DNA of 58,296 nucleotides, filler included, from Jimgerdemannia flammicorona (taxonomy: Eukaryota), in the NCBI GenBank assembly GCA_003990765.1. It is 2 parts of 2 records of this genome, joined end to end, with 100 filler letters (N's around TTAATTAATTAA, not from the genome) between each part and the next. Parts side by side here need not be neighbours in the genome. Positions count along the whole stretch, not along the records: positions 29,202 to 58,296 come from RBNJ01000519.1; 1 more part is not named here. One strand, given 5' to 3'. How positions within the stretch are numbered: the first letter of the stretch is position 1; each line of letters begins with the position of its first letter. Positions 2,754 through 52,678 of this stretch are shown one piece after another. The notes under the pieces are model-generated. The model saw nothing but the letters and a program-made list of their open reading frames with translations. It made no database searches and had not been told where the DNA came from. Both the position numbers and the translations under genes were made by a program.

Positions 2754-5572
2754 TCTCAGAGATATTTAATTTCTCTTTTTTCTATAGAATCTAGGACTTC
2801 TATAAAATTTATAGGATCTCCTACTCATTCTTGATAGATTTTATATCTGATAAGTACTAGAATGTTATTTCCTAGATTATAAATCTTGAGAGCCTTCTTC
2901 TTTAGTTTTCTGGTCTTGTTTCTTCAGATCTGAGATCTGTTATCTCCTCTTTTAAGTATATATAGTAATATCTTAACTGAGATAAATCTTCTAATATAGA
3001 TAGTCTTGGTAGTCTGGATGTTTTCCATGTTTGCAATATTCTATTACTCAAAAATACAACTCTCAGTTATTGATTTCTTACTGTCTTGAGAATTAGGATT
3101 TATTCTAGTCATAAGTTAGAAGAAGAGTAGCTAATATATACTTCTATTTGGAGAAATTAATCTTGTTCATTGGTCTATCTTCTCAATATTATAGTGGTTT
3201 CTTAAAAGATAGTTGTCTGTGTAATTATAATTAGAGATTCTGATCTACAGTATTTTTATCTTTCTTACTAGTTCAGTAAATAGCACTAATAGCAGCAGTC
3301 TCAGAGAGAGTTGAAGAACTATCTAATACTGATATCTTCTTAGCTAAAAGGCTCTTTTCTGATTTATTTCTTATCTTGAGACAATAGCAACTATATTTGG
3401 TCCTTCTTTAATATTCCAGAAATCATTATCTTCTAGTAGTATCTAGCAAGAGTTATCTTAAAGAATAAGTTCAGAGAGTTTCTTCTGTTCAGAAACTTCT
3501 TGTTCAGAGGTTTCTTCATCAGATATTTCCTACTTCTAGATTGCTTATACTTCTATAGTTTTAGTTATAAATATCTTTAGAGAATAGTTGTCTTTCTTCT
3601 TTCTTTTTCTATATTAAGAATAGCCTATACTAGATAAATTTCTTATCTCAATGATCTTGGAGAAATGTTTAGAGTACTTGTATCTTTTGAGATAGACAAG
3701 AAATCCTCTGACTTATTCTGTGATAGCTCTAATTGTGATATAAATAGTATCTTTTATCTATATATTATCTTCTGGTCTATCATCTATAAGATTGATTTAT
3801 AAGTTAAGTCTGGGGTTATTTCTATCTTCAGATTCTTTTTCTTTTTCTATAGTAGATTCTTTACTACTAGCATACTCTTCTAGGATAGTAATCTTCTTCT
3901 TCTTCTTTAATTACTCATAGCTAGTCATCTTGATTCTGTACTTTTTTTCTCTATAGTTGATTTGAGTCTTATTGATCAATATTAATAACTGTATTCATTT
4001 TCTTCATCTAGTTGGTGCTAAGAATTATATCATAAATAACAGCTTCAGTGACAATAGCTTTTGAAATAGAGAACTGAATATGTTTAAAGAAGATGGTAAT
4101 ATTTCATATTTCTTTAAGAGACTGAGTTTGGGCTCTATTTGCTACTATAATGCTAAGATTGGATAGTCTATCAATGGACCACTAGAGGGTATCTAGGAAT
4201 TACTTGATAATAATACAGATAGTTGTTCTTATATCAATGAGGATTTTTACCTTCTATCCTTTAACATCTCTATGTATATATATACTAATATATCTCTCTA
4301 TAGCCTAGATAGTAGTTAGTACTAGTTCTTATTGTGGGATTAAGACTTAGCCAATGCTGGACCTCATAGTTCTCAATAGTTTATTTTGAACTCCAGCAGA
4401 TATTAGTTATAAGAACTATAAGAGAGAGGCTTCTATCTTGGCTTTTTAAATTATTTATCAGACTTCATTATAGATATCTCTGGATATAGTCTTTGGAATG
4501 TACTTTTTCTTAAACTTCAAGACAATAGGCACTTGTTTTTTTTATTCTATTTCTTCATCCTCTGACAGTAGTTCATTTGTTTTAAAGATAAAAGATAAAA
4601 GAGACTAGAGGGGTATTTTGATCTACTCTTCTTCATCTTTCTCATCTTCTTTCTAGATAGTTTTTCTGCTGATATTTCTGAATAGCCTTCTTATTGATCT
4701 CTTCCTTTTCTCAGCTGAGTATATTGTTTTTCTGAAGATAATCTTGGTTAGATATAGATCTAGATCACTATAGTCTTTGCTGTTGTTTTTTTCTTCAAAA
4801 TCTTCAATAGAGTAGGCTTCAGTCTTCTTATATTTAATTGTATTCTTCAATTTGGTGGTTCTGAGTCCTTTTTATCACTTCTCTTACTGTCATAATCTGT
4901 GACATAGTGTCTGAACTATCTATAATAGAAGTATTAAACTTGAGCTCTATCTCAGAGTAGATATCTCCTTTCTTCTTATAACTAGTAGCTTCTGTTATCT
5001 CTGGGTAAGTAGTCTTGATTTCTTTATAGTATGTAATCTCTGCTGTCTTGTAGACAGCTCTAATTTTGTATATATATAGTGAGTTTTTCAATTTGCTCAA
5101 CCAATTAGTTCAACATAGAGTTATTGTCCTGAATTTCATTTCTCTATTTCTTCTACTCCTTTTCTGGCCTTTCTTCTTCTAATTTTTCATATTCTTAAAG
5201 GAGTCCTTATAGGGTTTTAATCAAGAGGTCTTCCTTACTATTCTACTTATTATAATTACTTTAGGTAGTTCTTTATCTAATATTAAAAAATTCTTAAGCT
5301 ATATCTACTTATTCTTCAGATCTTCTGATATCTAGAATGTAGACATACTGAGAAATATTTGGGGAAATCCTATTCATAAAGATCATTGGATTTATAATGT
5401 CTTAATTGGTGATATTAAATCTAGCTATATATTCTTTTCTGAATTCTATTGAGAATACTCTAAGTGATTCTCTGAGATTCATCTTTATCTCTATGATAAA
5501 TTCTTGAACTTTATGGCAGGTTTCATTTCCTGTATATTTTTCAATAAGTCAGTAAGTCATAACTTCATATTC

Positions 5573-5575
<3 letters not shown>

Positions 5576-5612
<37 letters not shown>
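5576..5612. repeat. 37-nt poly-T tract inside relic gag
   Basis: Homopolymer run with no counterpart at the homologous site (~41420) of the full-length copy. Confidence 0.9.
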
Positions 5613-5616
<4 letters not shown>

Positions 5617-6525
5617 AGCCAGTGGATAATAGCTTTATATTTTTTATCTCAAGAAACTACTATCTAGATAGCTATTTTAAGATCTATATGTATATTATTT
5701 ACTATTCAATTGAAAATTTCTTTGGCTGGTTTTCTGAGTTGGGCTAAGTAGTAAAGTTCTTTAGAGTTGTAATTTCTTTAGTTATATTAAGGAATTCTCT
5801 TAAGTATTCTTCTGGATATTCTACAAAGATTAGTATTGAGATGACTGTTTTATTATTACTGTCTTTTGGTTCTGATTCTGGGTCTGATTCATCTTTTGAG
5901 TTATTGCTAGAGCTTGAGATACTTAGATATCTTAAAGATATAGTTGTTGGTCTTGAGTAAGATATAGTAGGTCTGAGTATTCTTAAAGATATTGAACTAA
6001 GAGAATTTGCTGATTCTGGTAGTAGTGAAATTAGTAGTACTTTTGTTACAGAAAACTGATATTGGATAATGTAATCTTCAAGTTCTTATATAAGTTTATT
6101 AAAAGTTTGAATATGGTCTTCTGTATTTTCTAGCAAGTCAAATCTCTTGATAGTATATCTGCTGTAGAAAACTAATATGAATAATGTGATCTTTAAATTC
6201 TTATATAAATATATTAAAGTTTTTAGTAGAGTTGTCTATATTGTCTGATTGATATAATTAGGTCAGATCTCCTAGTAGTAAGTCTCTTAGTACTAGTTGA
6301 GAGTTCTATACTATACTGACCTTTTGTTAAAATTCTTTTAATACTAGGTAGTTAGTAAGTATTGAGATAATTACTTCTCTTCTTATTTAAATACTAATAA
6401 TGACTTATTCTCCTATAGTGGTAGAGTTTGATATTATGTCAAATATATTCAGTTTGGCTATTAGGTTCTTATGAGCTAAAAAAGTCATATAGATTTTTAG
6501 AAATCTTTTTAGTTGAGACTCCAAA

Positions 6526-7363
6526 TATAACATATTGACTTAATAAAGATAAATTACAAAATTAGAGCTATTATGTAAATTAGTTTGAAACTCTAATTAC
6601 TTTGTTAAAAAGCAATAAAATGTTCAATAGTTTCTCTTCAAAGTAGATATAAATTTTGTTTTATATAATATAGATAATTTTAGTGGATTTTCTAATTAGA
6701 TAGAATTATTATAATATGGTAAATTTGGCAGATTTCTTAAGTAGTGCAGATTCTCTATAACAAATTCAGTAGATAAATATATTAGTTTTTTGGCTTAGTC
6801 TGGCAAGTATACTAAAATATAATAGATTTCTTAAATTCAGGCTTAATCTGATAAATATATCAAAATTGATAGACTTCTTTATATTAGAAAGTAGACTAGA
6901 GTACATATAAATTAAATATTAAGCTCACAATTTTCTAAAAATAACTTTAGAGCAGATGTTTCTCCTAAGTATTACAATCCTTCTTTGATCAAGTGGCTTT
7001 TGGCAGATATATCTCTTGAAGTATAATAGACTGAGGTTTATTCACTCTTATCTCTTGGGTATTTTATATAGTTGTGGTTACTATCTGATTGCTATCTGGG
7101 TAATTATAAAATGTGCAGTAATATTACTTTAGAGAGAGAGTGACCAGGTGTACCTACTAGAGACAGGTATGTCTGCTGAACACAGATATGTCTGCTGGAC
7201 ACAGGTGTGTCCACTGGGCACAGGTGTATCCTTAGGGCACAGATCAACATACCCAATTTGGTACATCTGGCTAATTATATAAGTTGTAGTGAATATGGGT
7301 AACTAGGTGTGGGTAACTATGCTATGATGTCATCTGGCTATACTATGTTATTCGCTCGTCACA
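6526..7363 (-). repeat. 5' LTR (~838 bp) of the family A relic
   Basis: Begins TGTGAC on the minus strand at 7363 and ends with a decayed TTACA next to the PBS; TATA/AATAAA module at ~7035-7070. Confidence 0.75.
7145..7243. repeat. 19-bp tandem repeat (about 5 units) in LTR U3
   Basis: CAGGTRTRTCYRCTGRRCA-like units start at 7145, 7164, 7183, 7202, 7221 and 7240. Confidence 0.8.
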
Positions 7364-29101: not shown

Positions 29102-29201
29102 NNNNNNNNNNNNNNNNNNNNNNNNNNNNNNNNNNNNNNNNNNNNTTAATTAATTAANNNNNNNNNNNNNNNNNNNNNNNNNNNNNNNNNNNNNNNNNNN
29201 N
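29102..29201. other. Artificial scaffold gap/linker
   Basis: 44 N, then TTAATTAATTAA (stops in all six frames), then 44 N; 100 nt in total. Confidence 0.97.
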
Positions 29202-35879: not shown

Positions 35880-38145
35880 AACAATGGAGACACTAATCGA
35901 TCCTTTTGATCATTATATAGATGAGATATATATCTTGAGATAATTAATATATATATTCTAAAGTTCTCAGAATATATTTATTTATACTTTTATATAAATA
36001 CTTATTTCTCTGATATTATATATAAAATAAGATTCTTTTCATTTAAGTTCTAGTTTTATAGCAAAATTGATTTTAATTATACTTCTTTAAAAGGGTCTTT
36101 ATCTCTAATCTTAATCTTCTAATATTTTTACATACTTTTTCAGTTTTTCTTAAGTTTTGATTATCTTGACTTTGGCTTGATTTTACAATTATTCTGCCTT
36201 ATCTAAAAGTTCTATAAGATTTTGTAATTAACAGTTCTGATCTTCTTAATAAATATTATCTCAAATAGTCTCTATCTTATAGAAATAATAGGAGTATTTA
36301 GAATTTCCTATAAAATCTCAAGTATACATATAAGTAGAGATCCTGATTAATAGAGTTGACTCAGATAAGTCTTTTTTTAATGATCTGGTTCATTTATTCT
36401 ATTATTTTATTAATTTGAGTATAGTAGAATATAGTTTTTTTAAATAAATCCTATAGATTCATATATAAGTTATAATTAACTTACTATGAATACTGTTCTA
36501 TAGTCTGAGATAAATTCTTCTAGGAGTTTATATCTGAGAGTAAGACTATAAGAGAGATCTATTATATTTGAGATACATATTTATAATTTCCATTGAAAAA
36601 GTCTTGGGCTATTTGGTTAAATATTTTACAAATATCAAGATATATTTATTTCCTTTTGATATTATTAACAGATGTCTAATTATATCTACTGTCTATCTTT
36701 GAAAGATATGAATAAGTAGAAAGATTAGTTATAGTAATATTTGGTAATTTTTCTTTTCTTAATACTTTTGATAGATATTATATCTTCTAAAGATATCTCT
36801 GACTTATATTTTAAAATGAAACTAATATTGATATCTTTTTTATAGCTTTTCTTTTATATTTATCTATTTTTGATAAGATGAGATCTTCTTACTTCTTAAT
36901 AATTATAAAAACTTTCTTTAAAGTATAATTCCTAGATATATTCTTTTTCTAATTTATTAGATTATATAAGAAAGTATATTAATATTATTATAGACTTTTT
37001 CTACTTTATGAATAATAATAATTTTATAATCTTATAGAATTAGAATCCAGTAGGTAAGAATTTCAATAGAGTTCTTATAGTAGAGTAACTATTTAAGAGT
37101 ATTATAGTCAGTTATATATCAGAGTAAATTTTTTTTAAGATATATATTCTAATTTAATACCACTATAATTAACTTACTGCTTATTAGTAGCTTGGTTTAT
37201 ATAAATATTATATAATATTATCAATTAGATCCTTCTTAAGCAAAAATTATATTAGATCATTTTTAAAGATATCTATATAATATAAATAGTTTCAGTAAAT
37301 TAGATTGTATAAGGACTGATACTATAGTTATATAGTATTTGAGTTCTTTAAAGACTTTTTCTTATAGTTTTCTCTAATATATAGTAATTTTTTTTTTTAG
37401 TAGAGTTCAAACTGAAGCAGAAGTTTGATAAAGTTTCTGATAAATCTTTTATAATAAAATACTAGTTCAGAATAGATAGCACTTTTTTTTAGAGAGTTTA
37501 AATATTAATCAGTTGTTGATATTTTCTATTTTCTTTAAGTTTTTTTCTTAGAAACTATAAATTTAAAAAATTTAAGTCTCTGTTTTCCAAAATAGCATTT
37601 CTTAATATTGAGTCTCAGATAATTCTTTCTAATAAGTTGGAAGAATTCTTTGAAATATTATAGGTATTCTTTAAAGTTAACTGAGTAGATATTAAAATTA
37701 TCTTTATAGACAATTAAATAGAAGTAGATCAATAGTATATAGACTAAGTTCATTATTCTCTATATTTAAAGATATTTAAATAATTTTCTTAGGGTAAGTA
37801 AAGTCATTTTCTGAATATCTTTTGAGTTTATAGATATCTTGTAGAATTCTATAAAGAGAGCTATACTACTGAAGTATCTGATATCCTATGTATAATTAAT
37901 CTAGAAGATTATTAATTTAGAGAAAAGAGTAGATCTCTTTCTTAGTTTCTAAGTTGAGTTTTCTATACTTTATACAAAGTCTCTATCTTTCTTTATTTAA
38001 TATAATAAGCATAGAGCTGGTCTAGTAACTAGTTGATAGTCTGATGACTCTATTGTTTAAGAGTTTCTGAATTTATTCTTTCTTAAATATTTTTAAATTA
38101 TGAGATATTCTTTATGACTTCATACTGTATTTTCTATATTTATAC
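35880..38145 (-). mobile_element. Extremely decayed family A pol (RT, RNase H, integrase, start of ORF3)
   Basis: Reverse complement is colinear with ~45310-47670; very AT-rich. Confidence 0.75.
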
Positions 38146-38419
38146 TATAACATACTGGCTCAATAGAGATAAATTATAAGATTGGAGATTAATATATATA
38201 GTTTAGCTTGAGCCCCCAGTTACTTTGTTAAAAAGTAACAAAATATTCTATAGTTTCTAGTATTTTTGTTAGTATTTAGTAATATAATAGTCAAGTCTAG
38301 ATATAGTAGTTGATTTGGAAAATTTTCTTATTAAGACAGTTCTTGGGTATAGTGATCATATAATGGTCTCTGTATAGTATAATAGATTTCTTATATAATT
38401 TCTGTATAATAATCTCTGA
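38146..38419 (-). repeat. Family A LTR 3'-end fragment
   Basis: TATAACATACTGGCTCAATAGAG..GAGCCCCCAGTTACTTTG matches the sequence from 51150 onward. Confidence 0.7.
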
Positions 38420-39332: not shown

Positions 39333-40634
39333 TGTGACAAACCAAGACATACCACCCAAATTATACCTTAGCTAAATGACATAAACAATTAGTCAGATAA
39401 TGTGAACACACAACATAGTAACCAGCAACCATTGCTGCAGAAACTGTATAAATAGCAGAACATACCAGATAGGGTCTGTTTACCTGTACAGACTCTGTGC
39501 ATCTGCTATAGATAGCAAATCTATAGTTAGCCATGTAGCAACCAGATAGCAACCACAATGTATAAATTACCCCAAAGACAAGAGTGAATAAACCTCAGTC
39601 CGAAAAGTTGAAGTAAACCAAAGAAGCCTCTAAAGATTGAGCATTGGTCCCTTTTCTCCACTCCAGTCCACTTTCCGATACAAAGATTGATTGGTTCACT
39701 TGCCGGATAAGCCTGAAGAATTCGAGTTTGCTGCCTAAGTTCAAGGAAGAACTTTGCTGCCTTCAGAATTATTGTTATTGGTTTGCTTGTCAGATAAGCC
39801 TGAAGATTTCCACCTAAGAGAAAGCCACCTTGCTTAAGCCAGTTTCTGACACAACTTCACAGTGAATCCATTTGCACAAACAAAGCCAGTCTTTAATGTA
39901 ACTTTACTAAGAGACCCTTTCCCAGAAGCCCACTGATTCTGGAGAATCTGCATCATCTACCATTTTCAAGTTATCTGCCATATTCCCAGTTGAAGCCAAT
40001 TCAGAAAGAATCCATGCCATCTGAGTTAATTTCCAGTTGAAGCCGCCAATTCAGAAGAATCTGCACCATTGTATTCTCAGAAGAACCTGCCAACTTAGGA
40101 AGAATCCATAACATCTGAGTTATCCAAGTTACCTGAGTTCTTGAACTATCTGCCTCTTGTGCCATCCAAGTTATCCATTGTTCCCAGTGAGCTAATATAA
40201 AAGAAACTGCCGCCAGTATTATTCCCAGTAAGGTGAATTCACACCATACAATTCCCAGTGAGCCAAATTGAGTTATCCATCAGAAATTGCATACTTTTGG
40301 AAATCGTTGCACTACACAAGAGATTGCTACATAGAAATCATATACTTTTGGAGACTGCTGTTACCCAGGAAGGAAACCACTTGTGCTACACACAAATTCT
40401 ACTATTTCCAGTTGACCCAAGAAGGAAAGACACAAATTACCACTATACCCAGAGAACCATCCCAATAAGGAAACTGCTCCCAGATATCCAGCTTGACTAT
40501 TATACTACTAAATACTAAGGACTTCAGGAATTATAGAATATTTTGTTGCTTTTGACAAAGTAACTGGGGGCTCAAGTCAAACTACATTAACCCCCAACCT
40601 TGTAATTTGCCTCCATTGAGCCAGGCACATTACA
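39333..40634 (+). repeat. 5' LTR, family A (1302 bp)
   Basis: Paralogue of 48179-49471; TATAAA at 39561 and AATAAA at 39587; many TTCCCAG repeats. Confidence 0.93.
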
Positions 40635-40636
40635 TT

Positions 40637-40654
40637 TGGGGGCTCAACTGGGAA
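40637..40654 (+). promoter_or_regulatory. Primer-binding site, tRNA-Pro type
   Basis: TGGGGGCTCAACTGGGA two nt after the LTR; resembles the MLV tRNA-Pro PBS TGGGGGCTCGTCCGGGAT once CpG decay is allowed for. Confidence 0.8.
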
Positions 40655-40667
40655 GATTTCAAAATTG

Positions 40668-43040
40668 ATGTGACTTTTCAGCTCACAAGAACTCACAGTA
40701 AAACTGGATACATTCAATACAACACCAACCTCTACTACTACAGGAGAACCAGTTATCACTAGCATCTGGACAGGAAGAGAAGTAATTACTTCAAGACTTG
40801 CCAATTATCCAGCATCAGAAGGATCCCAACCAGAACCAGAAGGCAGTATAACCCAAAATCCCCAACTAGATCAACCAGACAATATAGGCAGCCCTGCTAG
40901 AGATTTTGGAGAACTTGTACAAGAACTAGAAGATCTTATCACATGAACCTGAGACCTTACAGCCAGATGCCCCAGATCAGCCCCACCAATTTCACCAATA
41001 GAACCTTTACCACAACCCCTTGCAGAGTCAGAAGTAGCTCCTACAAGAATACCTAGACCTATTCTACTTCATCCAAGGTCTAGAACACCATCCTCAAGAT
41101 ACCCAAGCACCCCTATCTCCAGTGACAGCTCTGAAAGTGAATTGGAATCAGAATTCAAACCAGAACTAGAATTAGAAAGAAGTGATGATGAAATGGCCAC
41201 CTTATTGCCAATCTTTGCAGGATATCCAGAGGAAGACCCCAGAGAATTCCTTGATGGAATCGAAGGAATCGCAGCCCTGAGGAATCTCTCAGATGAAAGA
41301 AAAATTGACATCTACAAAGCTCAGCTCAGAGAACCAGCCAGAGGAATTTTATATCAAATAGCAAATAACTGAGATTCAGAACTAGCAAGACAGATATAAG
41401 CAGCAATGTCTGATGAGCTAGAATATGAGGCCATGGTCCACTGGCTCATCGAAAAGTATGCAGGAAATGAAACCTGCTACAAGGCTCAGGAATCTATCAT
41501 GGGAATGAAGATGAACCTTAGAGAATCACCCAGAGCCTTCTTTACAAGAATCTAGAAGAGAATGTATGCTGCTGGGTTCAATGCCACCAACCAGGACATC
41601 ATCGGTCCAATGATATTCATGAATGGAATTCCCCCAAACATTGCCTAGCATATCTGCACCCTAGGCATCAGAAGGTCTGAAGAGCAAGTAGATGCAGCCC
41701 AAGGATTCTTTAATGTCAGATAAGGAACTACCTGGAGTGACTATAACAGAAAAGAAGAGAAAGAAGACATCCTGGTCAAAGCCCTATAAGGACTCCTTCA
41801 AGGATAAGAAAGTTCTAAAGAAAGAAGGCCAGCCAAGGAAGGAAAGAAGGACAGAAATGAAATCCAGGACCTTAGCTCCAAGTTGGACCAATTGGTTGAA
41901 CAGATTGAAAAACTCACTATATGTGAAAACTGGAGCTACCAAGACAATAGAGGATACCCACCACAGAGGAGCCAAGGTTATCCACTCAGAGATAACAGGG
42001 GTTATCACTAAGAAGAAAGAAGATATCTTGTCCAAGATAGAGCCCAAGTCCAATGCTTCCACTGTGGACAATTTGGACACTATATCACTGAATGTGACAA
42101 CAAAAGAAGTGACTGAAGGGACTCAGAACCACCAAACCAAAGGAATGACACTCAGTACAAGAAGACTGAAGCCCATCCTGTAGAAGATTTTGAGGAAGCA
42201 AGCAACAGCAAAGACTATAGTGACCTAGACTTGTACCCTACCAAGGTTACCTCCTGAAAAACAGTTTACCCAGCAGAGAAAAGGAAGAGACCTGTTGGAA
42301 GGCCATCCAGGAACATCAGCAGAAGAATTATCCAAGAAGAGGATGAAGAACATGAAGAGGAGCAGGTAGAAATACCTCCCTGAACCCCCTCACCTTTTGT
42401 TCCCAAAGCAAATGAGTTGTCACTAGAAGATGAAGAAATGGAATAAGAAGAACAGGAACCTGCTATGCTAAGGCCCAAGAAGAAGTACACTCCAAAGACC
42501 ATACCTAGGGACATTTACAATGAAGCCTGGCAGAAGATTCAAGAGGCCAAGATAGAGGTCCCCCTCCTACAGTTCCTGCAACTGACACCAGCCAGAGTCT
42601 GAAACAAATTGCTGAGAACCACCAGGTCTAGCACTGGCCAAGTCCCAATCCCACAGCAAGAACCAGTTCCCATCCCTATTCAGGCAGCTGAAAGATATGT
42701 TAGCACCTATCTACATGGAGATATTAGAGGACAAAAGGCGAAAATTCTCATAGACACAGGAGCAGCTATCTGTGTCATTGCCAAACAGTTCCTAGACACC
42801 CTTCAATGGCCCATTGATGGACCATCCAATCTCAGCATCATAGTAGCAGATGGAGCCCAAACTCAACCCCTTGGAGAAGTACAAAATATCACCATCTCCC
42901 TTGGACACATTCAGTTCTCCATCCTCAAAGTTATTGTCACTGAAGCTGTCTCCTATGACATAATTCTTGGCACCAACTGGATGAAGGAAATGAATGCAGT
43001 CATCAATATTGGCCAACAAGTTCTCAAGTTTGATTACTAA
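40668..43040 (+). pseudogene. gag: Gag and aspartic protease, family A
   Basis: LPIFAGYPEEDPREFLDGIE; CCHC knuckle CFHCGQFGHYITEC (~42054-42095); ILIDTGAAICVI and YDIILGTNWM. Confidence 0.88.
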
Positions 43041-44360
43041 GACAAGAACTATAGTTAAGGTGACTAGCTATGAGCAATCAAAGAAAAAGAAGAAGGTCAC
43101 TATTCAGGAGGAATATGCTAGCAGTGAGGAGTCTACTACAGAAGAGGAAGAAGAATCCAAAGATGGAAACAATCCCAGACTCAATCCCCAAATTAACCTG
43201 GTGGATGACAGACCAGAAGACAATGTGTGGGCTAAGAATACCATCCCCATCACCATTGGAGCTATTGCAGGAGAAGCCAAAGGATGCCCTACCTACCTCA
43301 AGAGATATAAGTGTCCTGAGCACTCCTCCAAGATCATGGGAACAAGGAAATCACCTGGTATAGCCTGTCCAGAGTGCAGAAGAAAGAAGAAGAAATGCAG
43401 ATATGTTCCAGAAATACCTGCAACCAAGGCTGCAGAAGTACAAGCAATTTGGGACCAAGAATCATCTGAGGAAAAAGAAACTTTTGACCAAAAAGTTCCC
43501 AAACAAGAAATACCTGAAGAAGGAGAGATCTCCAAACTCATTCCCTGGGATGACCCTCACTGGACACCACCTGAGGCCAATGATCCTTGGAATATAGAAG
43601 AAGGACCCAGTACAATCACCATTATTCCAAAGAAAGAAACTCATCAAGAGAAGGCTTTTTGGCTTGGAAGGTGTCCACACCAAATGGTCTTCCACTCTCT
43701 CTGAGACTACTGCTATCAGTGTCATCTATTGGATCAACAAGAAAGACAGAGACCCCAGAGACCAGAACCCCCAACTATACTTATACAGTCAACCACTTTT
43801 CAAGAGGTTACTATAAGGTTACAAAGTCGATTTAGAGGACAAGGCTTCTTCACCCAAACAGAAATATACTCTTTGTCTACCCTTCCCCCAACTTATGATC
43901 AAGATGGGTACCAATTCCCAAGGCAACAAGAGATCAACAGCCAGGAACACCATTCCAAGCAATGGGATATTGCAACTATGGAAGACACTCTGACTGCCAA
44001 GACTGTAGACATCAGAAGATTCACCTCAGTAATGATGTTTCAGTCCATACCTTAAAGAGAGGAGACAATAGAGACCAGATCCAAAAAAGCCAAACCAAGA
44101 AGCCAGGAAGAAGAATCCTCAAGATCTATAATTTGGAAGAAGACATCCTAGCCCTCATCAGACATGCAACCCATCAAGGATGGGCAGAAGATACCACCAA
44201 CTTTATGGAAGCCCTTGACCCTACAGGAAGAAGAGGAATCAACTACCTCTGAGACCCCTCTACTAGAGCCAGATGGCCACACCTCAACCTCAGAGCCTGG
44301 AGACTCTCTGCCAGTGGAGCCTCAGCTCTAGGACAGCCTGAACTCAGCAAGGACACTGCC

Positions 44361-44765
44361 CAGTATGCTCTGCTACATCCTAAGGCCAAACCCCTGACCA
44401 AAGCCCACCCAGAAGATGTAGGGTATGATCTTCACAGTCTGGAGGATGAATCTATCAAGCCTGGAAAAACCTTCATGATCAGAACCAGATTATCCATACA
44501 GCCACCCCAAGGAGCTTATATCCAATTGACCTCAAGGTTTGGACTTGCCAGACAAGGAATAACTGTAGAAGGAGGAACCATCAACTCAGGATATATAGGC
44601 GAAATTAAGGTTATTCTATACAACAGCAGTGCAGAATAGCACTGAATCATTAGAGGACAGAAGATTGCCCAAGCAGTCTTCATGAAGATCAGGACCCTAC
44701 AATTATGGGAAGTATCTGAACTGACTGAAGGAATAAGGCAAGCCAAAGGATTTGGAAGCTCAGAC
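44361..44765 (+). pseudogene. dut: Trimeric dUTPase, family A, between protease and RT
   Basis: KAHPEDVGYDLHS...LTSRFGLA..EGGTINSGYIGEIKVILYN...GQKIAQAVF...RQAKGFGSSD covers motifs 1-5 with two stops; absent from the ORF track. Confidence 0.9.
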
Positions 44766-45172
44766 AAGAAGGAGGTACATCTCCTTCAAGTTAACTACCT
44801 CAAGAAGAATGCTCCCCAACAAGTGTACTAGCAACCAGTCAGACTGCACAAGAATCTCATCCTGGAGCCTGGAGAACAAACAACCTTCGAAATCTTTGCA
44901 CCACCCGACCCCAGAAACCTTTTCTTTGAACTCAAGGAAGATATTCCTCACCTGGACATAGAGGGACACACATTCTCTGACAAGATAAATCCAGTACACT
45001 CCCGAGCAATCAACCAAAGTTGAGAAACCATCATCTTGCTGAAAGGAACCATCATAGGGCATCTGGTGCCTTTTCTCAACCAAACTCATAGGGAGGTTTA
45101 TGAACTAAGCCTATCAGGAAATGGCAAAAGGTCCCAGAAGAAAGGAAAGGCCCCTCTGCGACCCAGGAGACA

Positions 45173-46577
45173 GTGAAGCCTTCCACCAACATTGGAGAAG
45201 AATTAACACCTCAACAACAGCAAAAACTAGTAGAACTTCTCAACAAATATCAAGATATCTTCACTACCGATTATGGTAACCTGCCATACAATCCATCATA
45301 CCACCACAGCATAAATATAGAAAATACAACACCTATCCAGCAGAAACTCTATAGAATACCCCATTACTTGAAAACATTCAAAAAGGAGCACATTCAAGAA
45401 CTCTTAGACAATGGGGTCAACCAGCCCCTAGGCCAGCTCTATACTTATTGTATCAAAGAAAGGAGGATGGAGAATCTGCATGGATTACAGGAAACTCAAT
45501 TCAGTCACTGAAAAGGATGCATATCCTCTGCTCAGAATTGATGACCTCTTAGATCAGTTACAAGATGCCAGATACTTCAGCAGTATGGACCTCTTTGCAG
45601 GATTCCATGAGATCCTCATGGACCCAAAGGACATCCAAAAGACAGCCTTCCTTGCTCTAGGAAAACTGTTTGAGTACCTCTGAATGCCCTTTGGACTTTG
45701 CAATACACCCCCCACCTTCCAGAGAATGATGAATTCAGTCTATGCCCCCTTGATCCACCACTGTCTGATTGTATACATAGATGATTCCAACATCTATTCA
45801 GCAAATTTCGAAGAACACCTGTACCATCTGGAGGAATTCTTCAAGCTCATCCACAAAAACCACCTGAGACTGAATATAAAGAAATGCTACTTTGGGAAAC
45901 AGAAACTTGAATTCCTCAGATTCATAGTCTCTAAAGAAGGAACCCATGCAGACTCAAAGAAAACCAAGAAGATCAACAATTGGCCAGTACCCAAGACTCT
46001 AAAGGAAATACTATCATTCCTGATGCTAGTATCCTACTACAGAAGGTTTATCAAGGACTTTGCCCAAATCGCTGCTCCAATCCAAATCCTTCTCAAGAAA
46101 GGAGTACCATTTAAATGGACAGAATCACAAGAAAAAGCCTTTAAAAGACTCAAGGACTGTATGACTACAGCACCAATCCTTGTGTGCCCCAATCTACAGA
46201 AGCCATTCATCTTGTATATAGATGCTTCCAAAGATGGCCTAGGAGCAGTTCTAGTCTAAGAAGGACCTGACCAACAGTACCATGTGATAGCTTATGCAAG
46301 CAGAGCTACCAATCAGCAGCAGATGAACTATGGTAGTACCAAACTGAAATGTCTTGCAGTCATATGGGTGGTCACCCTGTTCAAGCATTACCTCATCAGA
46401 AAAAGGTTCACCCTGATCACAGACCATATAACCCTCAAATAGTTATTCAACTATAAGGAACCCACCAGAATCCTAGCCCACTGGATCCTTATCCTTCAGG
46501 ATTACAAAATCACCATTATTCACAAAGCAGGAAAAGCCTACAACAATGTTGATGTACTTTCCCACCAGCCCCAATGA
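45173..46577 (+). pseudogene. pol: Reverse transcriptase and RNase H, family A
   Basis: DYRKLN, YPLLRIDDLL, MPFGLCN, VYIDD, FILYIDAS..GLGAVL, LITDH and NNVDVLS. Confidence 0.93.
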
Positions 46578-47639
46578 ACCAGAAGAAGGGTGTCCTGAGG
46601 AACTACACCCTAAAGGAAGCTCCTCAGACCATCAAAGCACAAGAAGATCTCATCTGAAAAGAACACCAGAAAGCCCACCAAGGATAGGCGAATGTAGAAG
46701 AGAAGTTGTAAACAATATACCAACATTGGCCTAATCTTAGAATACAAGTCTGAGACATCATTCAGAGATGTGATATCTGTCAGAAGTACCAAGGAAAGAA
46801 GAACTATCAAGCCCCTTTGCAACTGATTCCCCCACCCACTCACATCTTTCAAAGATGGGGAATAGATGTAATTGGACCTCTACCAGTTACACCAAGAAGA
46901 AACAAATATATTCTTGTATTTGTAGAACATCTGACCAAGTGGCCTGAGGCTTTCCCAATAGAAATCACAGATGCCCTAACCATTGTAGGCCTTCTCCATG
47001 GACTCACACTCAGATATAGACCCCCAGAAGAGCTTATCTCTGACTGAGGCATGGAATTCATCAACAACATAATCACAAGTTATGCCTGAATTCACAAAAT
47101 CCACCTCAAATGAACCACATCATACCACCTCCAGACCAATGGTATGACAGAAAGAATGAATCAGACAATCAAGAAAGGACTTGCTTGAGTCAATTCTACC
47201 AATTGGGACCTCTGCTTACTTGAGATCCTATGGGAAATTCGGAATGCCCCTGCCACCTCAACCAAACAAAAGCCATTTGAGATGATGTTTGCCAAGAAAA
47301 CGAGAACTGCTGACCATGAGAACCTCAGAGATCTTCTCAAAAAGGCAGAACAGTTATGTAATTAGGCCCAAGATCAGATTTTCAACCCAAGAAAGACAAA
47401 AGAAGTACTATGACCAAAGACAGAAGGATCAAGAGATCAAGATTGAAGATCAAGTACTAGTTTGGAGAAGCACAATTGAAACAAACTTTGCTGCCAAACT
47501 GGAGCCCAAATGGGAAGGACCTTATTTTGTACACAATATCAGAGGAACCAGTATCTATTTAAGAAGCATGGATAGATGAACCCTGAGAACACCAGTATAC
47601 ATCAATTGCCTCAAACTATATTTCCCCTCTATACTATGA
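46574..47639 (+). pseudogene. Integrase, family A, in a separate ORF
   Basis: ATG at 46574; H..H..CDIC zinc motif; WGIDVIGPL, LISD*G, QTNGMTERMN and KWEGPY; stop at 47637-39. Confidence 0.9.
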
Positions 47640-48139
47640 GCCAAAGGATTGATCAACACCTCCAGACACTGGTCCCTAGCTCCTTCCAAGCCCTATCAGT
47701 TCCCCTACCCCAATTTGGCCAAGCTAATGGAAACCCCCTTTAGAGAATTCAAGTTCACCAAGAAAATCTTACCTTGGCCAGATGCCTACTATAAGTCCAC
47801 CAACTATAGGCCTATTATGCAATTGGTGAACAATTGCAGAACCTTCCAGCCCCAGAACAGACCTATATCAGAAACACCACAGGTCTGACCAGGAGAGACA
47901 CTACTGCTGCAGACAGACTATATACCATTTATAAATGCTCTAATACAGGTACAGTTCTCCCTGAATGACATTCAAGGAATGAACCTATTACCTATTTGAG
48001 TATCATCAATTCCATTGAAATTCTATTCCCCGAAGAAGAAGAAGAGCCCATAGAATAGAGTGACCCTAGTACAAACAACAAAGATGATGGAACAGATATA
48101 GATGTAGAAGCAGCCTATACCTATTGAGATGATAACTGA
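47636..48139 (+). pseudogene. Accessory ORF3 of unknown function, family A
   Basis: ATG overlaps the integrase stop; MSQRIDQHL..L*AYYAIGEQL..GLTRR/TTAADRLYTIYK.. with an acidic tail; one frameshift is assumed. Confidence 0.55.
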
Positions 48140-48165
48140 AGAATAGTCTGAGACAGACTATCCTT

Positions 48166-48178
48166 CAGTGGGGGCTGA
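48166..48178 (+). promoter_or_regulatory. Polypurine-tract position, family A
   Basis: CAGTGGGGGCTGA directly before the TG of the 3' LTR. Confidence 0.6.
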
Positions 48179-49471
48179 TGTAACAAACCAAGACATATTA
48201 CCCAAATAATACCTTAGCTAGATAATGTGAACAATTAGCCAGATGATGTGAACACACAGCATAGTAACCAGCAATCATTGCTGCGGAAACTGTATAAATA
48301 GCAGAACATACCAGATAGGATCTGTTTACCTGAACAGACTCTGTATACCTGCCATAGATAGCAAATCTATAGTTAGCCATGTAGTAACCAGATAGCAACC
48401 ACAATGTATAAATTATCCCAGAGACAAGAGTGAATAAACCTCAGTCTGAAAAGTTGAAGTAAACCAAAGAAGCCTCTAAAGATTGAGCATTGGTCTCTTT
48501 TCCCCACTCTAGTCCACTTTCCGATATAAAGATTGATTGGTTTGCTTGCCAGATAAGCCTGAAGAATTCGAGTTTGCCACCTAAGTTCAAGGAAGAACTT
48601 TGCCACCTTTGGAATTATTGTTATTGGTTCGCTTGCCAGATAAGCCTAAAGATTTCCACCTAAGAGAAAGCCACCTTGCTCAAGCCAGTTTCTGATGCAA
48701 CTTTGCAGTAAATCCATTCGCACAAATGAAGCCAGTCTTTAATGTAACTTTGCCAAGAGACTCTTTCCCAGAAACCCACCAATTCCAGAGAATCCACATC
48801 ATCTGCCGTTTTCAAGTTATCCACTATATTCCCAGTTGAAGCCAATTCAGGAAGAATCTGTGCCATCTGAGTTAATTCCCAGTTGAAGCTACTGATTCAA
48901 AAGAATCTGTGCCATCATATTCCCAGAAGAACCCACCAACTTAGGAAGAATCCACACCATCCAAGTTACCCAAGTTACCTGAGTTCTTGAACTATCTACC
49001 TCTCATGCCATCTGAGTTATTCATTGTTCCCAGTGAGCCAATACAAAAGAAACCACTGCCAGTATTATTCCCAGTAAGGCGAATTTATGCCATATGATTC
49101 CCAGTGAGCCAAATCAAGTTATCTACCAGAAATTGCATACTTTTGGAAATCATTGTGCTATATAAGAGATCGCCACACAGAAATCATATACTTTTGGAGA
49201 CTATCATTATCCAGGAGGGAAACTGCTCATATTACACACAAATTCTGTCATTCCCAGTTGACCCAAGAAGGAAAGACACAAATCGCCACTATACCCAGAG
49301 AACCATCCCAATAAGGAAACTGCTTGCAGATATCCAGCTTGACTATTATACTACTAAACACCAAGGACTTCAGGAATTATAGAACATTTTGTTACTTTTG
49401 ACAAAGTAACTAGGGGCTTAAGCCAAACTACATCAACCCCCAACTTTGTAATTTGCCTCTATTGAGTTACA
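48179..49471 (+). repeat. 3' LTR, family A (1293 bp)
   Basis: Paralogue of 39333-40634. Confidence 0.93.
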
Positions 49472-51149: not shown

Positions 51150-52637
51150 TGTAACATACCTGGCTCAATGGAGGCAAATTACAAGGTTGGGGGTTGATGT
51201 AGTTTGACTTGAGCCCTCAGTTACTTTGTCAAAAAGCAATAAAATATTTCATGATTCCTGAGGTCCTTGATGTTTAGTGGTATAATAGTCAAAAGCTGGA
51301 TATCTGCAAGTGATTTGTATGTTGATTTCCTAATTGGGATGGTACTCTGGGTGTAGTGGCAATTTATGTATATGAATGGATTTCCTTCTTAGGTCAACTG
51401 GGAATAGTAGAATTCATGTGTAGCATAATGATCTTCCTTATACATGACAGTCTGGCAATTTGACAGTTTTCCTTATGTGATTTGTGTGGCGATCTCTGTG
51501 TAGTACAATGGGTTCCTTATGCGGGATGATCTGACGATTTAGTAGTTTCTTTCTTAGGTAATGGCGACCTCCAAAAGTATGTGATTTCTGGCGGATGACT
51601 CGATTTGGCTCACTGGGAATGGAGGATGGCATGGGTTCTTCTTACTGGGAATTATACTAGTGGTGGATTCTCCGAATCAGGCTCACTGGGAACAAATGAA
51701 TAACTCAGATGGTACAGATGTCGCAGATTCTTCTGAATCAGCAGCTTTAACTGGGAATGTGGTGGATAACTTAGAAATGGCAGATGATACGGATTCAGCT
51801 TCAACTGGGAATACTACTTGGATGGTGTGAGTTCTTCCAAATCAGGCTCTTCTGGGAATGTAGATAACTTGAAAGCAGCAGATGATGCAGATTCTCCTGA
51901 ATCAGCGGACTTCTGGGAAATAACTCAGATGGCATAGATAACTTAGATGTCACAGATTCTTTCTGAACTGGTGGCTTCAACTGGGAAATGGTGGTGAAGT
52001 TCTTCCTTGAACTTGGGCAGCAAATCTTCAGGCTTATCTAGCAAGCAAACCAAAAATGGACTCATTCTTTGTATCAGAAAGTAGACTAGAGTGGAAGAGA
52101 AGAGAACCAAGCTCACAACTTCTTGGCAGTGGCTCATTGGCAGGCATATCTCCTAAGTGTTGCAATTCTTCCTGGATCAAGTGGTTTTTGATAGGTGTTT
52201 CTCCTAAGTGTACCAGACAATTGACTTTTGCTTTGGTTTGTATTCAACTTTTGGACTGAGGTTTATTCACTCTTGTCTCTGAGGTATTTTATACAAGATG
52301 GTTGCCATCTGGTTGCTATGTGACTAACTATAGATCTGCTACTTAGGCAGGTATACAGAGTCTATACAGTGTACAAGACCTATATAGTATACAGAGTCTA
52401 TATGGTATACAGAGTCTGTACAGGTAAACAGACCCTTTATGGTATATCTGGCTAATTATAAGTATGGTGGTATGGGTAACTATGATATACTAGATGTCAT
52501 GCTAGGAGTTTACATCATCTGGCTAAGTTATAATTTGGATAGTATATTTTGGTCTGTTATATCAGCTCTTACTGAAGGATAGTCTGTCCCAGACTGTTCT
52601 TCAGTAATCATTCCAATAAGCATAAGCTGCTTCTGCA

Positions 52638-52639
<2 letters not shown>
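51150..52639 (-). mobile_element. Family A 3' LTR (51150-52561) with PPT and end of ORF3, interrupted by an L1
   Basis: Reverse complement matches 48101-49471, with differences in internal repeat number. Confidence 0.85.

Positions 52640-52678
<39 letters not shown>

Follow-up and report, generated by a model that had tools for sequence, protein, structure and literature searches.

A split Pol in Ty3/gypsy retrotransposons of Mucoromycota fungi: the integrase as a very probable separate gene, possibly translated by termination-reinitiation

In retroviruses and in retrotransposons with long terminal repeats (LTRs), the integrase is regarded as Pol's C-terminal portion; it enters the particle within Gag-Pol and is released there by the protease. 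Here we describe a lineage with a split Pol that is found in Mucoromycota fungi, and we do so by way of a 58,296-nucleotide stretch of DNA from Jimgerdemannia flammicorona (assembly GCA_003990765.1; hereafter the window), in which a 10.1-kb Ty3/gypsy LTR retrotransposon, element A, lies on the plus strand at positions 39333-49466. As judged from the sequences of the window and its relatives, the integrase of this lineage is very probably a gene of its own that is opened by its own AUG. How this gene is translated is less certain. Termination-reinitiation is our first choice, to which we give a little less than an even chance, and translation from a subgenomic mRNA is its main rival.

Results

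The stop after RNase H and the start of the integrase

Read in frame 0, the RNase H of element A ends with ..VDVLSHQPQ and a TGA at 46575-46577, and the ATG at 46574-46576 that overlaps this stop opens the integrase (MNQKKG..) in the -1 frame relative to RNase H, the two codons together forming the tetranucleotide ATGA at 46574-46577 on the plus strand. The first-pass annotation of this DNA had placed such overlaps here and at the end of the integrase (47636-47639), and both are present in the sequence at exactly these positions. The closest intact relative, the metagenome locus L020, carries the identical tetranucleotide ATGA at its positions 2791-2794; it shares 82% nucleotide identity with the window over 2.7 kb and 78% amino-acid identity in the part that spans reverse transcriptase (RT) and RNase H. 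From RT through the integrase the window has 14 in-frame stops, 13 of which are sense codons in L020 (CGA in six cases, plus CAA, CAG, TGG and others), and the only stop that the two sequences have in common is the TGA at 46575. Because intact L020 has TGA at this place, that of the window is not a decayed CGA, a reading that the first-pass annotation had kept in view. By this comparison the stop after RNase H is ancestral and not a product of decay.

It is accordingly hard to credit that the split is decay only, that is, a CGA>TGA change plus an indel inherited by both copies of the family in the window (element A and copy B, described below). Decay in the window is heavy, its CpG observed/expected ratio being 0.26; CGA>TGA changes account for six of the premature stops, and copies A and B belong to one family and are hence not independent. 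Against this, intact L020 has the same TGA and ATG, 18 further loci in which both the integrase and the upstream open reading frame (ORF1) are long and open are split at the same domain boundary, and stand-alone integrase ORFs number in the hundreds (795 at E<=1e-10). Since L020 shares the stop and the start, and an ATG stands at 20 of 20 junctions, we rejected decay as the sole source of the split.

A survey of related loci

A search of 5.8 billion proteins with the RT-RNase H part as query, in which longer proteins were requested, returned as closest relatives (47-49% identity) protease-RT-RNase H proteins, several of them with Gag, that have no integrase domain. These proteins end 2-4 residues past the RNase H 'LSR', matching the site of the window's TGA; examples are P0027-29, P0031, P0034-38, P0042 and P0082, which include Rhizophagus clarus and Rhizopus arrhizus records. 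An alignment of 13 ORF1 proteins was then used to retrieve 80 metagenome loci, which a script sorted into 41 fused loci, 22 split loci, 16 that are cut by contig ends or integrase-less downstream, and L064, which gave no match to the RNase H end. Four loci that the script had flagged as split (L022, L027, L073 and L077) have fused-type integrases, and the tree places them outside the split clade, next to fused loci or among them; they resemble fused copies that have been broken and were left out of the junction set. L002 and L070 were moved to the split group, as their 'FUSED' flag had arisen from a tblastn match running through the stop; L002 is in the junction set, and L070 is outside it, though it has a stop at 1197 and an ATG at 1224. 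The set comprises 19 split metagenome loci and the window, giving 20 junctions, and the position compared is the one homologous to residue 1 in integrase ORFs that are intact.

All 20 junctions have an ATG at this position, and the nearest in-frame stop lies 0-34 codons upstream of it. Relative to RNase H, the integrase is in the -1 frame in nine junctions, in the +1 frame in six and in the same frame in five; in 11 of the 19 loci its ORF is 405-433 residues long. The two genes overlap in 8 of the 20 junctions, by 1, 4, 8 or 14 bases: the junction reads TAATG in L003 and ATGA in L018, L020 and the window, the 8-base overlaps are those of L023 and L050, and the 14-base overlaps those of L015 and L024. 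The other junctions have spacers: ten loci have one of 30-98 bases, L079 has one of 163 bases and L004 one of 524. The ATGA form is specific to element A's family, and elsewhere in the clade the boundary is a TAATG, an 8- or 14-base overlap or a spacer of 30-524 bases.

In a maximum-likelihood tree of 69 RT-RNase H rows (IQ-TREE, LG+G4, quick search), all 15 split rows and the window fall into one clade of 23 rows (SH-aLRT 96), together with the fused chromovirus L060, whose place at the base of the clade is unresolved, and six rows that were misflagged or have their junction off the contig. The window is the sister of L020 (support 100), and the named members of the split clade are Rhizophagus, Entrophospora and Rhizopus. 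The 795 stand-alone integrases came from a search with the L020 integrase among proteins of 194-620 residues. Among the best 120 of them, 79 start with M within 3 residues of the homologous start, 20 extend 5-51 residues upstream, 20 start later and one is without an N-terminal match; those that start at the homologous M include Rhizophagus clarus and Entrophospora candida records.

The intact ORFs of 405-433 residues, the conserved ATG, the three frame relations and the TGA of L020 together give good support to a stand-alone integrase, as had been proposed at first pass. On these alignments the split itself, the start codon that is conserved and the stop that is shared go back to the ancestor of the whole clade and persist in its intact elements.

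Two further explanations would keep the integrase within a Pol fusion. Programmed ribosomal frameshifting, or readthrough of the stop where the frames agree, would suit the window, L020, L018 and L003, in which the integrase is in the -1 frame and the ORFs overlap, and the five junctions in which both are in the same frame. We regard this as very improbable, because the occurrence of all three frame relations (-1, +1 and 0) inside one clade excludes programmed frameshifting; moreover, additional in-frame stops are present within the spacers of 30-163 bases, reading the overlaps by eye revealed no X XXY YYZ slippery site, and the conserved ATG would be left unexplained. Removal of a small intron holding the stop, which would rejoin RNase H and integrase into a conventional Pol, is also improbable, if somewhat less so. 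Splicing tolerates any frame relation, and two Rhizophagus clarus gene models, P0065 and P0117, do pass from RNase H to the integrase, leaving out the stop together with the final residues of RNase H. The stretch that they skip, however, holds the motif (A/V)D.LSR, in which D, L, S and R do not vary among the 13 ORF1 proteins aligned, and it is therefore translated. A fusion needs no ATG, yet one is present in 20 of 20 junctions with in-frame stops just upstream, and the overlap junctions leave no room for an intron without loss of conserved residues. It is routine for gene predictors to join adjacent ORFs in such a manner, and the two models look like predictor artefacts.

A third gene after the integrase

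The integrase of element A ends with ..FPSIL and a TGA at 47637-47639, and the ATG at 47636-47638 that overlaps it opens a further frame, ORF3 (MSQRIDQ..), giving the second ATGA at 47636-47639 on the plus strand. The ORF3 remnant, of a family of about 144 residues, extends over 47636-48058 (plus strand) and aligns with the proteins P0241-P0244 and with an open frame in L020. It is broken by stops and frame changes, its stops fall on Q codons of the relatives, and part of its C-terminal half reads in frame 0. The frame in L020 is open for at least 130 codons, overlaps the end of the integrase and is homologous to the window's frame-2 reading. P0241-P0244 are the four relatives that were found in a full HMMER scan of 1.84 billion representatives, with 58-75% identity. 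P0241-P0243 start with MTQRID, P0244 starts 41 residues upstream and has an internal MNQRID, and P0242, with 144 residues, is full length.

The ORF3 start is kept in six of the seven family members, namely element A, copy B and P0241-P0244. The second codon, for T, N, S (AGC) or I, begins with A in every case, and the ATGA at the integrase/ORF3 boundary is thus probably kept in all six, as told for P0241-P0244 from the residue and not from DNA. With its four relatives, the open frame of L020 and a start kept in six of seven members, ORF3 is by homology a real separate gene of about 144 residues, in agreement with the first-pass annotation.

As to its function, no Pfam match above cutoff was found among eight downstream ORFs, Atlas feature matches scored 0.92 with 130-138 shared features, which is in the chance range, and the AlphaFold model of ORF3 is all-helical and of low confidence (pLDDT 59). 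In other subclades, too, the integrase is followed by ORFs of similar size. Those of 143-195 residues in L037, L050, L057, L079 and L003 show no more than weak homology to the ORF3 of the window (hhalign E=0.034, probability 1.5%), which we do not claim, and depletion of ATGs between the integrase stop and the downstream ORFs was inconsistent, with two ATGs in L037 and gaps of 1.3-1.6 kb in L050 and L003.

Two possible routes: termination-reinitiation or a subgenomic mRNA

That the separate-gene layout and translation by termination-reinitiation both hold is a tentative proposal, which we place slightly short of an even chance. In the layout, which taken by itself is very probable, ORF1 encodes Gag, protease, dUTPase, RT and RNase H and ends a few codons past the RNase H 'LSR'; the integrase is the second gene and a small, putatively helical protein the product of the third, with an ATGA overlap at both boundaries in element A's family. 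In the proposed route, ribosomes ending ORF1 on the full-length RNA would stay on and restart at the overlapping or nearby AUG of the integrase, and a second restart would occur at ORF3. A low yield of integrase per Gag-RT would be expected from such restarts, and the integrase would have to join the particle in trans. Reinitiation is favoured by the overlaps at 8 of 20 junctions, the paucity of ATGs in the spacers, the two successive ATGA overlaps and the precedents in viruses and in the retrotransposon SART1 (see Discussion). The 11 spacers of 30-163 bases hold 3 ATGs, compared with 12.4 expected from composition-matched shuffles, among which a number so low was reached by only 3 in 2000; 9 of the 12 spacers are free of ATG. 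Still more tentatively, the genomic RNA may be tricistronic across this Mucoromycota Ty3/gypsy lineage, with restart yielding a free-standing integrase and then the third protein.

Several observations weigh against reinitiation and its extension to ORF3. The spacer of L004 (524 bases) holds eight ATGs, that of L079 is 163 bases long, and ATGs are also present in the spacers of L007 (one) and L032 (two); those spacers that are free of ATG would suit a subgenomic mRNA with a short leader no less well. With as many as 1621 codons (in L037), ORF1 is very long, and restart after long ORFs normally requires a special signal. No such signal was found at the junctions in scans for the motif UGGGA and for upstream structure. 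UGGGA, the core of motif 1 of the termination upstream ribosome-binding site (TURBS), where it is complementary to 18S rRNA helix 26, is present in the 120 bases that precede the stop at only 1 of 20 junctions, with two matches against 2.7 expected, and the 19 split loci as a group are unstructured over the 90 bases leading up to the RNase H end (mean z +0.34). L020 alone is structured upstream (z -3.0 over 90 nt), the other 18 split loci having none, and against fused loci the split ones show no excess of structure (Mann-Whitney p=0.06, with the trend towards less). At the integrase/ORF3 boundary L020 reads ATAA, with the stop kept and the ORF3 ATG lost. Finally, the starts of the database integrases come from ORF callers and are no independent proof of initiation.

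The structure upstream of the L020 junction includes a hairpin of 10 pairs at L020:2743-2782 (GCGGGAAGGA..UCUUUCCCGC), which stops 10 bases short of the AUGA (z -2.05 over 141 nt). In the window this hairpin has decayed (z +0.70), via G>A changes on both arms.

The main rival has the integrase and ORF3 as separate genes translated from one or more subgenomic mRNAs, made from an internal promoter or by splicing of a 5' leader to an acceptor placed shortly before the integrase AUG, the overlaps then reflecting compaction; the env genes of retroviruses and errantiviruses are expressed by such splicing. We consider this possible and somewhat less probable than reinitiation. All the evidence for the separate-gene layout applies to it alike, the ATG-free spacers resemble a short leader, spacers of 163 and 524 bases would be hard to cross by restart, and the failure of the UGGGA and upstream-structure scans to find a restart signal is in its favour. 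A conserved hairpin that one subclade has 5-45 bases ahead of its integrase ATG may be the sign of a processing site or of an RNA end, and many stand-alone integrases lie on contigs of 1.2-2.5 kb, which may merely reflect fragmented assemblies. On the other hand, in 8 of 20 junctions the AUG lies within the ORF1 stop or abuts it, a placement for which a separate mRNA has no need; no promoter or splice site was identified, a few spacers being viewed by eye only; and a search of eight loci (42 kb) against Rfam at a permissive threshold gave nothing at the junctions, its one sub-threshold miRNA-like match lying away from them.

The conserved hairpin belongs to one subclade (L037:5193-5240, L032:3298-3345, L044:2799-2840, L057:4464-4505 and L066:2238-2280) and consists of GGTGAAAGC..AAGTGT, then six pairs with an 8-base loop, then AGCC. 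Its cells pair in 30 of 30 cases and three pairs covary, slid controls being 23-50% paired; no Rfam family contains this hairpin, and the window lacks it.

Layout and decay of element A

The 5' LTR of element A (39333-40620, plus strand) starts with TGTGAC.. and was delimited by local alignment with the 3' LTR (48179-49466, plus strand). Both start with TG in this alignment, and 1144 of 1288 positions (88.8%) are identical, 140 of the 144 differences being transitions. Within ORF1, which is read in frame 0 on the plus strand, an open stretch at 40953-41372 is a gag-like remnant, placed by position only and without a Pfam match; in relatives, precomputed Pfam assignments show Retrotrans_gag (PF03732) and zf-CCHC (PF00098) in ORF1 together with protease, RT and RNase H. 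The aspartic protease domain follows at 42603-43040 (gag-asp_proteas E=1.7e-12, RVP_2 E=3.2e-8), a dUTPase domain lies between protease and RT at 44253-44639 (PF00692 E=1.2e-16, 61 bits, cutoff 22), and the RT and RNase H remnant occupies 45432-46577 (RVT_1 E=6.8e-28, RT_RNaseH_2 E=1.9e-32). This last part has three premature stops, at 45681, 46257 and 46440, where L020 has CGA, CAA and TGG.

The remnant of the HHCC/DDE integrase extends over 46574-47639 (plus strand), in frame 2 to about 47385 and then in frame 0, and completes the plus-strand Pfam domain order protease, dUTPase, RT, RNase H, integrase. It matches Integrase_H2C2 (E=8e-7, 29.5 bits, cutoff 25.5) and, at 30.4 bits (E=4.7e-7), falls under the 32.6-bit cutoff of rve in this decayed copy; it also matches the integrases of relatives by tblastn. 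No chromodomain was seen in it. The first-pass annotation had taken the frame between the two junctions as open, which it is not: mapped against L020, it has ten premature stops, nine in the frame-2 part and one at 47577, and a 2-base deletion near 47385 causes the offset between the start ATG (frame 2) and the closing TGA (frame 0). With its premature stops, this deletion and its broken ORF3, element A is an old, dead copy.

Among the changes from L020 to the window, C>T (119) and G>A (80) lead, and decay is strongly transition-biased in element A (39333-49466) and in copy B (35896-38146) alike. The pattern fits cytosine methylation or mutation of the repeat-induced point mutation (RIP) type, and not age alone; LTR divergence therefore overstates the age of the element.

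The ORF1 products of relatives vary in their accessory parts, among them modules of nucleotide metabolism that differ from one relative to another. In L032, L037, L057 and L066 the RNase H is followed by a tail of 262-314 residues before the stop, which is Cys/His-rich in this subclade (e.g. ..WQCDDFCDWENHHLHTWCSSCQ.. in L057). By precomputed Pfam assignments, P0051 and P0058 have a NUDIX domain at the ORF1 N terminus and P0044 has a dUTPase (PF00692), and P0090 of Rhizophagus irregularis has a P-loop stretch after RNase H that is kinase-like by eye only.

Other copies in the window

Within the window the family comparison covered copies A, B and D. Copy B (35896-38146, minus strand) is the RT-RNase H-integrase part of an element of the same family; it aligns by blastn with 45308-47653 of element A at 1524 of 2388 positions (64%), and the similarity stops at 35896 and 47653, respectively. 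It is hypermutated (C>T and G>A), and such changes make up almost all the differences between its junction stretches, as aligned, and those of A. The equivalents of the two junctions are ATAA at 36957-36954 and ATGA, followed by MIKRID, at 35913-35910, with an indel at neither, so that copy B keeps both registers, as the first-pass annotation had stated. Copy A is as dead as copy B, merely less mutated.

Copy D, a related element at 17300-14534 on the minus strand, was traced by tblastn and by three-frame translation read by eye. Its dUTPase region runs directly into the integrase start (..PSRLFN-MNKELYYRL.., ATG at 15532-15530), and RT-RNase H seems to have been deleted with the integrase ATG still kept. 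Also on the minus strand, 2754-7108 holds a gag-protease region 71% identical to 41419-44254 plus an LTR fragment, and 51150-52640 a related piece; LTR-like fragments are 70-87% identical to the LTR of element A. The window is thus a nest of related Gypsy remnants; it also contains two runs of 44 N, at 29102-29145 and 29158-29201.

Discussion

The split lineage resembles canonical Ty3/gypsy elements such as Ty3 and Tf1 in its LTRs, in the order protease-RT-RNase H-integrase and in an integrase with HHCC and DDE motifs. In Tf1, as in the lineage of element A, Gag to RNase H are in one frame. Unlike these elements, the lineage appears to have its integrase outside the polyprotein, with its own AUG and in any frame (the window and 19 of 19 split loci), and to have a third small gene after it. 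Fungal Gypsy elements with a dUTPase between protease and RT, some of them basidiomycete, have been reported (PMC2864245), and the dUTPase of element A is likewise inside the polyprotein, between protease and RT.

Overlapping or adjacent stop and start codons after a long upstream ORF are known from several viruses. Victoriviruses have an AUGA stop/restart with a structured element just upstream of the overlap. TURBS-type termination-reinitiation is described for calicivirus and influenza B (PMC5972666), and coupled restart at UAAUG in a fungus is reported for the hypovirus CHV1 (PMC2699510). The split lineage is like all of these in the arrangement of stop and start, and like the mycoviruses CHV1 and victorivirus in having a fungal host. 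It is unlike the TURBS viruses in its near lack of UGGGA (1 of 20 junctions) and in having no shared upstream structure, and it is known from sequence alone. Among retroelements, the bicistronic non-LTR retrotransposon SART1 has UAAUG stop-start coupling (PMC3894237). SART1 is likewise a retroelement with a second gene at an overlapping stop and start, and L003 has the same TAATG. SART1 and LINE-1 belong to another class of retroelement, however, and their downstream gene encodes RT and endonuclease, whereas in the split lineage it would be the integrase of an LTR element, after an ORF of up to about 1600 codons.

Replication proteins that are not all made as one Gag-Pol fusion also occur elsewhere. 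Foamy-virus Pol is made from its own spliced mRNA, and for the Caulimoviridae polycistronic translation of the pregenomic RNA is described (PMC5902531). The split lineage shares this feature with both. Caulimoviruses differ from it in being without integrase and in using a viral transactivator, and foamy viruses in that the whole Pol, and not the integrase alone, is separated. The literature covered, without the element-structure supplements to PMC2864245 and PMC3248453, yielded no LTR retrotransposon whose integrase is started separately, and none is described in the excerpts of PMC3248453, PMC13468544, PMC5911963, PMC4427930 and PMC2582038.

A large and long-lived lineage whose integrase is its own gene, in any frame, would break the rule that the integrase is the C-terminal part of Pol. 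It raises the questions of how an internal AUG that is thousands of bases away from the cap comes to be used, by what means a free integrase finds the particle and the cDNA, and what the third protein does. If restart is indeed the route, the ratio of structural to integration proteins would be set at the RNase H/integrase boundary and not at gag/pol, and the integrase would be recruited to the particle in trans, making this the first LTR retroelement known to work so. Although dead, the copy in the window is valuable as a witness of the layout. Annotation pipelines call such integrases host genes, or invent introns that fuse them to RT, as in P0065 and P0117; once the true layout is known, the annotation of transposons in arbuscular mycorrhizal fungi, and in fungi related to them, would be corrected.

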